Shown piece after piece: positions 3,634-30,371 of a stretch of 55,635 bases of DNA; within the stretch, counting starts at the first letter, position 1, and each line of letters opens with the position of its first letter. A model generated the notes under the pieces. It did no database searches. It saw nothing but the letters and a program-made list of their open reading frames with translations, and was not told the DNA's origin. The position numbers and the translations under genes were made by a program. Source of the DNA: an uncultured Candidatus Saccharibacteria bacterium. GTDB lineage: Bacteria; Patescibacteriota; Minisyncoccia; Phycocordibacterales; UBA9973. Location: contig CAYTMO010000002.1 in the NCBI GenBank assembly GCA_964439045.1, positions 1 to 55,635 on the forward strand, read 5' to 3'.

Positions 3634-3831
3634 TCATTTGTTTTTTCTTAGTGCATTTTCCAAGAACTCGACCCGTTCTTTAAGTTCTGTGTTGACTATA
3701 TTCTTTGAAAGCGTAGAAGTAAGCTTGGCAATCATAGATGCCTGCTTGAGTGACATTTCCTTATTCATCACTTTACGGATGGTATCCGAAAGAATGTTAT
3801 TTATCTCTTCTAGATTAATTGGTTTAGTCAT
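3634..3831 (-). CDS. small helical hypothetical protein (65 aa)
   Basis: ORF packed 1-2 nt from both neighbours (3831/3833 and 3632/3634). Ends in an ELKERVEFLE coiled-coil-like segment. Confidence 0.45.
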   Translation of the reverse strand: MTKPINLEEINNILSDTIRKVMNKEMSLKQASMIAKLTSTLSKNIVNTELKERVEFLENALRKNK

Positions 3832-3832
3832 A

Positions 3833-4207
3833 CTAGTTATTTTCTACGATTTCAAACCAAGCTCTCACTTCATGAGCCTTGCCACTTTTAATAATGTTTT
3901 TGTAGAGTGCAAAGATAACATTTGGGGTTAGCTTTCTTGCCCAAGAATTTATATCCTGAACTAATCCATCTTTCTCAAGTCTTTTGTTCCAATCGGTAAG
4001 CGTTCCGACATCGATATTATATTTTTTTGAGAATTCTAGTTGTGTTTTAATTGCGAGTAACTCAAACACAGTTTCTTCTTCAATGCCAAATTTCTCGAGA
4101 GCTACTCTTGGTTGTCCCTTAAGAAACGAAGGAAGGGACTTCCAAAGAGCGTAAGTCTCGTAGACTTGCTTTTTATATGGATCTTTAGAAAAATCTTCTT
4201 CCTGCAT
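3833..4207 (-). CDS. HTH-containing protein, possibly phage terminase small-subunit-like
   Basis: Putative HTH FSKKYNIDVGTLTDWNKR. Sits directly after two phage-type methyltransferases. Family assignment is from memory only. Confidence 0.5.
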   Translation of the reverse strand: MQEEDFSKDPYKKQVYETYALWKSLPSFLKGQPRVALEKFGIEEETVFELLAIKTQLEFSKKYNIDVGTLTDWNKRLEKDGLVQDINSWARKLTPNVIFALYKNIIKSGKAHEVRAWFEIVENN

Positions 4208-26132: not shown

Positions 26133-26245
26133 AGCAGAGAAAGTAATTGTGGACCCGACCAGAGTTGAACTGGCACTGCACATTTCTAAGACGGGCGTGC
26201 TACCTTTAACACTACGGGCCCTAAAGCTTATATTACTTTCTCTGC
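26133..26245. repeat. perfect 14-bp inverted repeat enclosing the tRNA-like gene
   Basis: GCAGAGAAAGTAAT at 26133-26146 and ATTACTTTCTCTGC at 26232-26245. Confidence 0.8.
26150..26221 (-). tRNA. atypical tRNA, anticodon UAG (Leu codon) with short variable loop
   Basis: Hand fold: GGGCCCG/CGGGTCC acceptor, GTGT/GCAC D stem, anticodon stem CCCGT/ATGTG (one C-U mismatch), loop CTTAGAA, 4-nt variable loop, T arm GCCAG-TTCAACT-CTGGT, A73. Confidence 0.65.
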
Positions 26246-26536: not shown

Positions 26537-26965
26537 TTACTTTTTAGACGACTTATAAACGATATAAATTAGAGAAAATACTAGATAAGCGACTGAAACA
26601 ATCAAAGCAATTAAATCTTTTTGTATTGGTATATAAACATCTCCTGCATCCCAAGGAGTTATAATTACAATAAGTAAGTAGATAAGTATATAAAAAATAA
26701 ATGTTTTTTTCCAAGAAACAAAAACCTCTGGTTTTAAAAACACCATAATTAGAGAAGGAATAAAGGCAACTACACCTAGCATTAAAACTAAGATAGAATA
26801 TCCCACCAGATCAACACAAGAGGAATCGTAGTGTCCACAAATACCAAATAAAGTTTCTCTTTGTACCAAAACAAAAAAACCAATAGTACTAAGTAAGCTA
26901 ATTATAAAAACTACTTTTTTTGTAAAAAACTGAAATATCTTTCCCATAAAATTAAAATTTAACAA
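26537..26965 (-). CDS. polytopic small membrane protein
   Basis: Four hydrophobic helices. Overlaps the upstream ORF by 14 nt. Confidence 0.5.
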   Translation of the reverse strand: MLNFNFMGKIFQFFTKKVVFIISLLSTIGFFVLVQRETLFGICGHYDSSCVDLVGYSILVLMLGVVAFIPSLIMVFLKPEVFVSWKKTFIFYILIYLLIVIITPWDAGDVYIPIQKDLIALIVSVAYLVFSLIYIVYKSSKK

Positions 26966-27845
26966 ACCTTTTAAAAATCAAAACCCCTAACACTAACCCT
27001 AATATAATAGCATACCAAATAAAGTTTCCTTTAACTTCTGTATTTATTACAGCGCTAGTAAGAGATAATTCTTCTTTGGGTTCTATGTTTGGCTTCTCTT
27101 CTGTTTCTTCTACCCGCTCATCTTCATAGACTACTTCTTGTTCTATTTCTTTTTCTTTAATTACTTCTACTTCTTTTGTAACTTCTTCTTTTTTTGTAAT
27201 CTCTGCGCCTTGCACCACACCAGAACTTTGTTCTGCATTTTCTGTATTTAAAGCAAACATTATTTGTTCTTGTTTTGGTTCTAATGGCGCAGGAAAGCCT
27301 GAGCCGCCGCCAGAAGAAGAGCTACTAGGAGGATTGTTAGTAGGTGTTTCTTCTGTTGTTTCAGTCTCCTCTTCTTCTGCAACTGGCTCCTCTTCTGTTC
27401 CTTCCTCAACCACTTTCGGGTAAACCTCATCCACTTCCCCATCGGCATTTTGGTCTACTTCAAGCTTGGCTAGTGATAATTTGAAATCTGAATCAATTTT
27501 CATCGTAGCAAGAGTTGTACTTAGACTGGATATATTTTCAAAGGTTGTAGTCTCTACTACATCGTTACCAAGTTGTTTCTCTATGTCTAAAGAAAATGCT
27601 CCACCTGAAATACCTTGAAGCTTCAATGTGTAAGACACTCCAGTAGGAGTAGAAATGAATTGAGTATCACCAAATGTCTTATAGACTACATTTGGTATTT
27701 CTTGTTTGATTTCTCCTGCTATAGGGTCAAGTCCTGTGTATCTGCCTTCAGAGTCTGTGATGCCGAGTGCAAGTGGTGAGTGGAGAATGTAGTGGAGACG
27801 AGCATCTTCTATTTCTATTTTTAAATTAGATTCTGTATCAGTCAC
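26952..27845 (-). CDS. C-terminal part of a surface protein (acidic/Pro-Ser linker and C-terminal TM anchor); frame open up to 27968
   Basis: Listed GTG start has no SD. The same frame as the upstream gene continues without a stop back to the TAA at 27969-27971. Confidence 0.5.
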   Translation of the reverse strand: MTDTESNLKIEIEDARLHYILHSPLALGITDSEGRYTGLDPIAGEIKQEIPNVVYKTFGDTQFISTPTGVSYTLKLQGISGGAFSLDIEKQLGNDVVETTTFENISSLSTTLATMKIDSDFKLSLAKLEVDQNADGEVDEVYPKVVEEGTEEEPVAEEEETETTEETPTNNPPSSSSSGGGSGFPAPLEPKQEQIMFALNTENAEQSSGVVQGAEITKKEEVTKEVEVIKEKEIEQEVVYEDERVEETEEKPNIEPKEELSLTSAVINTEVKGNFIWYAIILGLVLGVLIFKRFVKF

Positions 27846-27968
27846 AATGTTTGTAGAATCAGAGAAAGATAAGTTTGTATTTACTTTGGATTTAATAAAT
27901 TCCCGAAGATTTTGTATTTCTAGAATATCTTTGTGGTCTCTATTAATATTAAAAAATGGTTTATTGTA

Positions 27969-30326
27969 TTATTTTAAATCCACCCACCACCTCTCCACAT
28001 TCGGATTATCATTAGGTGACATCCAAAGTGCGCTAGGGGTGACTACAGTAGCGTCACCATCTACCACAAATCTAGGATTGACGGCTATTTTGTTATGCTT
28101 CATAGAATAATTTATTCCTGCTATTGTCTCCTCTCCCCAGCCTGCTACTTGGATTACTTTGGTATCAGTATGTGGTTGCCAGTTGTCTATAATAGTGTGA
28201 GTATCTTTGGCTTGTTGGTATAAGACAGGGTTACCGATAACTGGTAAATTGGTGTCTTTGTAAGCTGGCTTTGTTCTGCCATCTGCACCAAAAATATAAC
28301 TTTCTAATTCTGCATAGCTACTGATATCAAAACCATATTCTTCGATAAAAGAATCGAGGACTTCTGTGTCTTTAAAAGAAATTATTCTCTCTGGAGCAAA
28401 GGGAATCTTGTTTACCAAAGTTTCAAAATACTTTTCGGACGGAAGAAGATTGTAAGCTACAGGCATATTCTCGGCAAGCCATCTTTGTCTTTCGTTTTTC
28501 ATTATGAGTCCGAAGCCTACATCCCTACCGTGTAGTAGTGACACAAGCGCTTCTGGGGTGCCGAGCTGTGGCATAGCCACCAAGATAACTTTATCTATCT
28601 TTTCATAAAGAGGATTGTTGGTATCTTTTAACTTTTGTATCAAAGCTTTCGCTACTAAGCCACCATTGCTATGGGTTACTATGGTCACTTTTCCATTTCG
28701 AGAAGTAGCTTGTAAGTCTTGTAGGGTTTTTAAAATAAAAGATTCGGAGAATTCTTGAGTTTGGCTGTATGAAAGCTTGCCGTCTGTAGCTTTACCATTT
28801 GTAATAATGTCTTCTAATGAAAGCCTCCAATCGTAAGGAATAAATGCATAGTCTTCGATAATACTTTCATCTTGTTTCCATTTTTGTAAATCTGCAAGGA
28901 AGGATTTGTAAATATTAAGTGGGCCTATCTCATCAACTATTCCAGTCTCAGCCTCGATACCATCATATTGTGTATCGTCTTTAGTATAAATACTGTATGC
29001 ACTTTTACCCGTTGCATCACTTCTTAATAACTCTTGTTTAGAATCACTTGTATATGACCAGAGCTCTTCATCTTGAAAGCAATTAGTAAGTGGTGCTACT
29101 GGTACACAATCTTCAAAGCCTGTTTGTCTATATAATTTACTCCCCATCATCCCCGGCAGGAACATCACATTTGAATTACAGTCTATAGTACAAGGTTCGG
29201 GTACAAAAAATGGATCAGTAGTGAGCCAAGGATCAAAAGACACATTGTCTGATACAGCATTACCTAAGCCTGATTGATTAGTATCGTGGTATGGTCCAGT
29301 AGCATCACCCCAAAAGTTTTGAATAGCATCTACAGCACCAAATACTCCAAACAAAGTATTATTACTAATTAAACTATTGCGGATAATGACATTACCGGAA
29401 TTTTGATATACACCATATTGATTGTTTATAAACTTAGAATGATTGATATTAGTATCTCCTCCAATTTGGATTAAGCCGTAAGAATCATTTTCTACAAACT
29501 CACTATTTGCAATGTGCACTATACCGTTCTGGTTATTTATTCCATATTTTGAATATTTTAAAACTATATGTTTTAAATCCCCGAGTGAGTTGTTGTTAAA
29601 TTTAACATTACCCCAGCTACCTTTTTGAGCTATTGTTTTGTCATTATCTAAATTTGTATCACCTATTAATGTATCGTCTGAAATAGAAGTAAAATAGACT
29701 TTCTCTCCTTCTGTGCCATTAATATTTAAATATGAGGTAGAGCCTACTGTAATATGAGAAATTGAATTTCTAAATTTAATAATTACTCCTGGTTCTATCG
29801 TAAGCGTAGATCCGTTCGTGATATATAATTGGTCAACTATGTATGGGTTGTTATCTTTGGTCCAAGTAATATTCTCAGTCACATCTCCTGAATATGTAAC
29901 AGTATTTGTTTGTTTTAATGGTGTACACAATCCTTCTACCGGACAATCAAAAGCCATATACCCATAAGCTTCTTGATAATCACCATCTAAATATGGAATT
30001 AAATAATATATACCAGCACTGCCATCTAGTAGCTGCCCATTCGCTGGATCAAAATTACCAAAGTTTTTTGTACCAGCATTAATATTACCAATACAAATAC
30101 CATTACCACGTGTCGGTGATCTGAAAACTATATTATCAATTGTGTCTTTAGCAATTTGAAATGAGTTAAAATGAATACTATTTAGATATGGCGGAGTATC
30201 GCAATACACAGCTCCGTTAGTGTTTAATGTGTACGGTATCTCATAAGAAAAATCTGCGTAAGATGTTGTTGGCAGAAAAATTAATACAGAAAATATAGCT
30301 AGCCACAAATACTTTAAAAGTGACAT
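27969..30326 (-). CDS. secreted beta-helix repeat protein fused to an alpha/beta-hydrolase (lipase/LCAT-like) domain
   Basis: Signal peptide. Parallel beta-helix repeats (NSEFVENDSYG...INNQYGVYQNSGN...SNNTLFGV). Nucleophile elbow VTHSNGG. Confidence 0.75.
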   Translation of the reverse strand: MSLLKYLWLAIFSVLIFLPTTSYADFSYEIPYTLNTNGAVYCDTPPYLNSIHFNSFQIAKDTIDNIVFRSPTRGNGICIGNINAGTKNFGNFDPANGQLLDGSAGIYYLIPYLDGDYQEAYGYMAFDCPVEGLCTPLKQTNTVTYSGDVTENITWTKDNNPYIVDQLYITNGSTLTIEPGVIIKFRNSISHITVGSTSYLNINGTEGEKVYFTSISDDTLIGDTNLDNDKTIAQKGSWGNVKFNNNSLGDLKHIVLKYSKYGINNQNGIVHIANSEFVENDSYGLIQIGGDTNINHSKFINNQYGVYQNSGNVIIRNSLISNNTLFGVFGAVDAIQNFWGDATGPYHDTNQSGLGNAVSDNVSFDPWLTTDPFFVPEPCTIDCNSNVMFLPGMMGSKLYRQTGFEDCVPVAPLTNCFQDEELWSYTSDSKQELLRSDATGKSAYSIYTKDDTQYDGIEAETGIVDEIGPLNIYKSFLADLQKWKQDESIIEDYAFIPYDWRLSLEDIITNGKATDGKLSYSQTQEFSESFILKTLQDLQATSRNGKVTIVTHSNGGLVAKALIQKLKDTNNPLYEKIDKVILVAMPQLGTPEALVSLLHGRDVGFGLIMKNERQRWLAENMPVAYNLLPSEKYFETLVNKIPFAPERIISFKDTEVLDSFIEEYGFDISSYAELESYIFGADGRTKPAYKDTNLPVIGNPVLYQQAKDTHTIIDNWQPHTDTKVIQVAGWGEETIAGINYSMKHNKIAVNPRFVVDGDATVVTPSALWMSPNDNPNVERWWVDLK

Positions 30327-30371
30327 TACTCCATCAATATACCAAAAAGGTAAGTTTTGTAAATAGATAAT

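Follow-up and report, generated by a model that had tools for sequence, protein, structure and literature searches.

A single in-frame TAA interrupts the catalytic domain of a predicted cell-surface lipase gene in a Candidatus Saccharibacteria genome, probably as a very young nonsense mutation

Results

The stretch of DNA analysed here (the window) comprises 55,635 nucleotides (nt; positions 1 to 55,635 of the forward strand) of contig CAYTMO010000002.1, from the metagenome-assembled genome (MAG) GCA_964439045.1 of an uncultured, ultra-small Candidatus Saccharibacteria bacterium (Patescibacteria). Its minus strand carries the gene for a predicted cell-surface lipase, the reading frame of which contains 1124 sense codons and one internal TAA, at codon 786 (Table 1). 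Gene callers annotated the locus as two proteins of 785 and 297 amino acids (aa). A first-pass annotation, made from the sequence alone, had described a frame of ~1124 aa split by a single TAA, and retranslation confirmed this description together with the coordinates of both open reading frames (ORFs). Past the TAA, the same frame continues for 41 sense codons (YNKPFFNINRDHKDILEIQNLREFIKSKVNTNLSFSDSTNI) up to the GTG at 27845, and this gap is indeed, as had also been noted, free of stops, ATG codons and Shine-Dalgarno sequences; upstream of the GTG there is neither an ATG nor a purine-rich Shine-Dalgarno sequence, nor a promoter-like site. A promoter-like site is found 5' of the ATG at 30326 (in full, TTTACA-16-TGgTATATT). 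At the base composition of the window (35% GC), the probability that the 338 codons beyond the TAA are open by chance is P = 2.6e-11, and the part downstream of the TAA is therefore coding sequence.

Table 1. Features of the interrupted gene and its immediate surroundings, listed in the direction of transcription (window coordinates)
Feature	Position	Strand	Basis or remark
Promoter-like TTTACA-16 nt-(TG)TATATT	30336..30363	-	10/12 consensus matches, TG extension; consensus match only
Shine-Dalgarno-like GGAG, 3 nt before ATG 30326	30329..30332	-	direct reading
Start codon and predicted N-terminal signal peptide (MSLLKYLWLAIFSVLIFLPTTSYA)	30255..30326	-	hydropathy peak at residues 1-21; cleavage site inferred
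Upstream ATG ORF, 785 aa	30326-27969	-	closes with TAA at 27971-27969
Right-handed beta-helix-type region, ~residues 140-370	29217..29909	-	weak PF28492 Beta_helix_4 match
LCAT/LPLA2-type alpha/beta-hydrolase, ~residues 378-815, TAA inside	27882..29195	-	PF02450, AlphaFold2, Foldseek
Ser553 codon, putative nucleophile, T-H-S-N-G-G motif	28668..28670	-	invariant in 17/17 and 71/71 aligned sequences
Asp758 codon, putative catalytic acid, V-D-G-D motif	28053..28055	-	invariant in 71/71
In-frame TAA, codon 786, followed by T	27969..27971	-	direct reading; 1 TAA inside genome match
His798 codon, putative catalytic His, R-x-H-[KR]-D-I-L-E	27933..27935	-	invariant in 70/70 homologues
GTG, annotated start of 297-aa ORF; internal Val codon	27843..27845	-	alignment with homologues; no Shine-Dalgarno sequence
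Conserved beta-sandwich, residues 843-969 (RLHYxLHSPLxLGITD...)	27420..27800	-	AlphaFold2 strands, pLDDT ~88-96
Acidic low-complexity Glu/Pro/Ser/Thr stalk, residues 970-1090	27057..27419	-	28% Glu (969-1090)
Predicted C-terminal anchor: L-T-S-A-V motif, transmembrane helix 1100-1120, basic tail KRFVKF	26955..27062	-	hydropathy
True stop TAA of full-length frame	26952..26954	-	sequence reading
Small membrane-protein gene, 136 aa, several transmembrane segments	26537..26947	-	ATG 4 nt after full-length stop; synteny

With a 19-residue hydropathy window, only two hydrophobic segments are seen in the complete frame, at residues 1-21 (signal peptide) and 1100-1120 (C-terminal transmembrane helix). 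PF13229 is found in some homologues, and a 43%-identical paralogous stretch of this region lies on contig C22 of the same genome. The hydrolase domain matches PF02450 (LCAT) over residues 496-647 with a score of 41.3 bits (cut-off, 21; E = 1.5e-10). The beta-sandwich that follows contributes many invariant or near-invariant columns to the alignments described below, and the acidic stalk cannot be aligned between homologues. The first-pass annotation had assigned an acidic stalk and a C-terminal transmembrane helix, and no signal peptide, to the part downstream of the TAA; composition and hydropathy agree with this, and the 297-aa downstream product would be without a signal peptide. Its view of the upstream part, as a signal peptide, beta-helix repeats and a GxSxG-type hydrolase domain with no anchor, holds except that the hydrolase is incomplete, since one of the presumed catalytic residues (His798) is encoded past the stop.

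Residues 378-975 were modelled with AlphaFold2 using 70 homologues; the model has a predicted local distance difference test score (pLDDT) of 90.2 and a predicted template-modelling score (pTM) of 0.91, with the strands of the beta-sandwich at 466-592 of the model. When the model was compared with the PDB using Foldseek, the top 13 matches were LPLA2, LCAT and Tle4 structures, with a probability of 1.00; the best were LPLA2 (4x90/4x97, with target-normalised template-modelling (TM) scores of 0.71-0.73), LCAT (5txf/4xwg) and Tle4 (4r1d). Identity to solved structures of these types is only 13-16%, and phmmer found no link to solved structures at the sequence level. A comparison of the family profile with PDB sequences returned Tle4 as the sole match, a marginal one, covering an FxPGxMGS oxyanion-region motif and an HSxGGLV nucleophile elbow. 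The structural relationship is thus made clear by the fold comparison, the sequence-level searches having given no link or a marginal one.

Judged from their invariance and from the LCAT/LPLA2 fold, Ser553, Asp758 and His798 are likely to form the catalytic triad. The Ser...Asp...His order is that of LCAT and LPLA2 (PF02450), and both this order and the [A/T]-H-S-x-G nucleophile motif are invariant across the family. The protein considered here differs in being bacterial and much larger: a beta-helix precedes the hydrolase, and a beta-sandwich, an acidic stalk and a transmembrane anchor follow it. In this genome its gene is cut 5' of the presumed catalytic His. The ancestral gene is, on the combined grounds of sequence and predicted structure, a member of the LCAT/LPLA2 family, of which the product obtained with translation table 11 would be a truncated member. 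Tle4, a lipase effector of the Pseudomonas aeruginosa type VI secretion system (T6SS), is matched with a Foldseek E of 9e-11 but with weak TM-scores (0.40-0.45). Tle4 is directed against the membrane of another cell, and by analogy the intact enzyme might act on a host cell. The present enzyme differs from Tle4 in that it carries a Sec signal peptide and is anchored in the membrane instead of being delivered by a T6SS, and there is no immunity gene. By model and by analogy, the intact enzyme would be a phospholipase or acyltransferase acting on a lipid substrate.

The TAA falls between Asp758 and His798, 12 codons before the latter, in a loop that follows the strand VERWWVD. At this column the homologues are variable (K 20, E 18, R 10, S 7, T 6, others), and all 70 have a sense residue. 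A helix, the beta-sandwich, the stalk and the anchor are all encoded 3' of His798, such that the 785-aa product keeps Ser553 and Asp758 and loses His798 and everything behind it; a complete Ser-Asp-His triad in one polypeptide would be obtained only if the TAA were read through. Because the presumed catalytic His798 is encoded after the TAA, the 785-aa fragment should be catalytically dead, and it should also be unanchored. The earlier proposal that the stop splits the beta-helix/lipase protein from its linker and membrane anchor must consequently be revised: the stop lies within the LCAT-like domain and removes the beta-sandwich as well. If the short form is dead, as predicted, the associated idea of one secreted and one anchored isoform becomes unlikely.

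A collection of 5.8 billion protein clusters was searched with residues 400-960 (threshold E <= 1e-3), yielding 1320 homologues, the named ones of which come from Patescibacteria, Paceibacterota or Parcubacteria. The best 120 of these 1320 cover 91-100% of the query and hence extend through the stop position. The sole 100% protein match is this organism's truncated 785-aa protein, the next best having 61% identity. Two alignments were made, the first with 17 sequences and the second with 71 (70 homologues plus this gene); the 41 gap codons align undisturbed with the homologues, and where this gene has the GTG, the homologues have the Val/Ile of a conserved N-I-V motif. Among 40 related genomes searched in six frames, 12 have homologues, none of them with an internal stop. 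An apparent match with one TAA in the same-genus genome G013 was rejected, as it turned out to be the natural end stop of a 995-aa ORF that the alignment had overrun by three codons. The gene is single-copy in this genome and is present in 8 of 24 other genomes of the genus. In one of these (G024, locus L006), the gene after spoU (71% identical) is one uninterrupted ORF of 961 aa, behind which comes the small membrane-protein gene (a tblastn match to an ORF at 3745-4158). The ancestral state is thus, by comparison with its relatives, one continuous gene, in line with the original suggestion of one coherent cell-surface enzyme: the homologues and the syntenic orthologue are all continuous, and orthologues encoded as two separate genes, which would have spoken against that suggestion, were not found, the orthologue in G024 being one ORF.

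The N-terminal passenger has been swapped between the two syntenic orthologues (29217-30254 here versus 850-1500 in L006), the conserved part beginning with the lipase core; in this genome the N-terminal domain is the beta-helix, and in the G024 orthologue it is an unrelated Cys-containing domain.

The exact 785-aa protein was found on two Logan contigs, assembled separately from runs SRR13076583 and SRR13076572, which match the window at 100% identity along 4920 and 4089 bases, TAA included. No intact allele of this organism turned up in the protein clusters, nor in metagenome and genome contigs that were searched using a pattern with NNN at the stop. Because two separately assembled contigs carry the same TAA, a random consensus error at this site is unlikely.

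We also looked for signs that the TAA is decoded as sense. Among the 40 tRNAs reported by ARAGORN, none has the anticodon UUA. Both class-I release factors, RF1 (PAT motif, contig C28) and RF2 (SPF motif, contig C8), are encoded, and UAA is recognised by both. Genome-wide ORF statistics fill with spurious long ORFs because of high-GC contigs, apparently contaminants, which swamp a count over all contigs, and the ORF counts were accordingly restricted to the 35%-GC contigs. There, among 464 ORFs with a length of 200 aa or more, 364 (78%) end in TAA, and TAA-T is the commonest terminator tetranucleotide (165/464), which gives the internal stop the appearance of an ordinary terminator. The lipase gene is the only split of its kind in these contigs, that is, a long ORF followed in frame by at least 100 open codons, with a start-less gap of more than 17 codons; the next largest start-less gaps measure 15-17 codons and separate ordinary adjacent genes. 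With TAA as the main terminator and one such split, the genome does not have the profile expected of a genome-wide reassignment of TAA to sense. Compared with shuffled sequences, the 161-nt segment spanning the stop and its 3' side shows no excess of structure (z = +0.48), and no terminator-like hairpin was found after the TAA. PMC5289835 reports that a U at the +4 position lowers read-through in E. coli. There is, in sum, no sign of a programmed local recoding signal or of genome-wide reassignment.

Stop usage as a whole is skewed in the same set of ORFs (TAA 78%, TAG 17%, TGA 4%), despite the presence of RF2. ARAGORN also reported a tRNA-Ser with anticodon ACU (C4:6962-7048, +), a tRNA-Ile with anticodon UAU (C4:13242-13316, -) and a short, 73-nt tRNA-Leu(UAG) at 26149-26221 (-) of the window, ~730 bp downstream of the lipase gene; none of the three is a UAA suppressor.

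Discussion

We consider it probable that the TAA is a genuine, very young nonsense mutation that inactivates the lipase gene. The locus would then be either a pseudogene at its very beginning or a loss-of-function allele that predominates in the population sampled. One gene, encoding a signal peptide, beta-helix, alpha/beta-hydrolase, beta-sandwich, acidic stalk and C-terminal transmembrane anchor, would have acquired a TAA at codon 786, where standard-code translation would end; the secreted 785-aa fragment would be inactive as a hydrolase and would not be held on the cell, and the 338 downstream codons would not yet be decaying. From sequence and model, we infer a loss of hydrolase activity in this allele. 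Loss of the gene is plausible because it is accessory, being single-copy here and occurring in 8 of 24 other genomes of the genus. Young nonsense pseudogenes in reduced symbiont genomes share with this case a single disabling substitution, an accessory gene and intact orthologues in relatives; here the lesion removes essential residues that intact homologues retain. Among the four explanations put forward in the first-pass annotation (recent nonsense mutation, sequencing or assembly error, population heterogeneity and programmed read-through), a recent nonsense mutation, possibly still polymorphic, is thus the one that fits best; a plain assembly error is unlikely, and programmed read-through with two isoforms has turned out to be the least supported of the four.

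Several observations weigh against this interpretation. The ratio of downstream to upstream identity is 0.866, compared with 0.873 +/- 0.056 in 70 homologues, and positions that are at least 90% conserved are kept at 42/43 downstream versus 140/146 upstream. Neither a second stop nor a frameshift is present in the 338 downstream codons. Unlike a typical pseudogene, the gene carries a single lesion and does not yet show a measurable relaxation in constraint, and pseudogene status rests on one stop. As for the allele itself, Logan contigs drop minority variants, and SRR13076583 and SRR13076572 are neighbouring accessions, perhaps from one study, and may not represent biologically independent samples. 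The intactness of the downstream part is equally compatible with a recent mutation and with continued translation or a persisting intact allele; because the downstream part has not decayed, the mutation, if the gene is a pseudogene, must be very young.

The same data bear on the alternatives. That the gene still functions at a low level, through basal, unprogrammed read-through or through a minority intact allele, either of which would keep the 338 downstream codons under purifying selection, is in our estimation unlikely: the 338 downstream codons are as well conserved as in functional homologues, the Logan contigs and the MAG consensus conceal minority alleles, and the syntenic membrane-protein gene 4 nt past the full-length stop could make translational coupling matter, but searches of 5.8 billion protein clusters and of metagenome and genome contigs brought up no intact allele, UAA-U is the best terminator context and is recognised by RF1 and RF2, and a very young mutation accounts for the intactness equally well. 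A sequencing, assembly or consensus error, the gene being truly intact with a sense codon at position 786 and a product of 1124 aa, has in its favour that a single base change at the stop restores the frame, homologues have Lys or Glu there and the remainder of the gene is intact. We nevertheless regard it as quite improbable, given that the assemblies from two runs and the MAG contig have the same base within more than 4 kb of 100% identity, that the site is a substitution and not a homopolymer-length error, and that no other such split occurs in 800 kb of 35%-GC contigs. There is very little to recommend treating the locus as two genuine genes, the second starting at GTG 27845, and we give this next to no credence: it is how the callers annotated the 785-aa and 297-aa proteins, but the GTG is a conserved internal codon with neither a Shine-Dalgarno sequence nor a promoter, the 41 codons that precede it can be aligned with those of homologues and hold the invariant His, the 297-aa product would have no signal peptide, and two-gene organisation is seen in no homologue examined.

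Programmed UAA read-through or local recoding, giving a short secreted and a long anchored isoform, is hardly credible either. The locus shares with programmed read-through systems an in-frame stop followed by a long, conserved open frame, here of 338 codons and with no terminator-like hairpin 3' of the TAA. Unlike in those systems, the stop is not conserved (no homologue or orthologue examined has one at this column), it stands in the strong TAA-T terminator context and inside the catalytic domain, and neither a stimulatory RNA structure nor a suppressor tRNA was found; both release factors are encoded, the genome holds no other such gene, and the short form, which lacks the invariant His798, would not be a useful isoform. 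A variant in which the TAA is tolerated because a few ribosomes read through it, such that the gene yields mostly a released, dead fragment and a little anchored, active lipase, seems to us very improbable. Were it true, the released beta-helix/hydrolase fragment might serve as a decoy or adhesin, and read-through would be a regulated switch that sets the dosage of a surface phospholipase which might damage the very episymbiont that makes it.

If the TAA is, as we favour, a young nonsense mutation, the locus represents a natural knock-out allele in one population, which suggests that the enzyme is dispensable there. As for the intact enzyme, a Sec-exported phospholipase or acyltransferase, tethered to the membrane and kept at a distance from the cell by an acidic stalk, could act on the membrane lipids of the host cell, which would fit its resemblance to Tle4 and LPLA2. 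Patescibacteria are generally held to lack the capacity to synthesise membrane lipids themselves, and such lipases would therefore be plausible tools for lipid uptake from host cells. More broadly, the homologues would constitute a large, widespread family of surface proteins of Patescibacteria with an LCAT/LPLA2/Tle4-like core, swappable N-terminal domains and C-terminal anchoring modules; a literature search brought up nothing useful on this family in Patescibacteria or on runs SRR13076583 and SRR13076572. The finding itself is ordinary, and its practical value lies in a corrected annotation: the entries for the 785-aa and 297-aa proteins should be joined and marked as a single interrupted gene, so that the MAG is not credited with two functional genes, a "secreted lipase" and an orphan "membrane protein".

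The C-termini of the family deserve mention in their own right. All members that end in a transmembrane helix share a conserved motif, L-x-A-S-[V/A] (LTSAV in this protein), which lies ~10 residues ahead of the helix, and have a basic tail after the helix. This three-part layout of motif, helix and tail resembles a sorting signal, and no NCBIfam model matches the protein or its C-terminal anchor. In other members the C-terminus is instead a ...GFVxVxxxTxGxxLxVxY module or one of PxKF type, ...YIYNWSTKGL...DDGNxYSVxxGL[RK]; by sequence comparison, the C-terminal attachment modules are interchangeable within the family.

The small membrane-protein gene downstream has no obvious Shine-Dalgarno sequence before its ATG. 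If the two genes are translationally coupled, the premature TAA, which lies 1 kb further upstream, could be polar on it.

Finally, 29 of the 89 contigs in the MAG (246 kb of 1.04 Mb) have a GC content of 50-74%, among them C3, C5, C6, C10, C31, C33, C34, C41, C49 and C50, and the remaining 798 kb lie at ~35%. These high-GC contigs look like foreign sequence binned into the MAG, for which the reported contamination is 0.76%.

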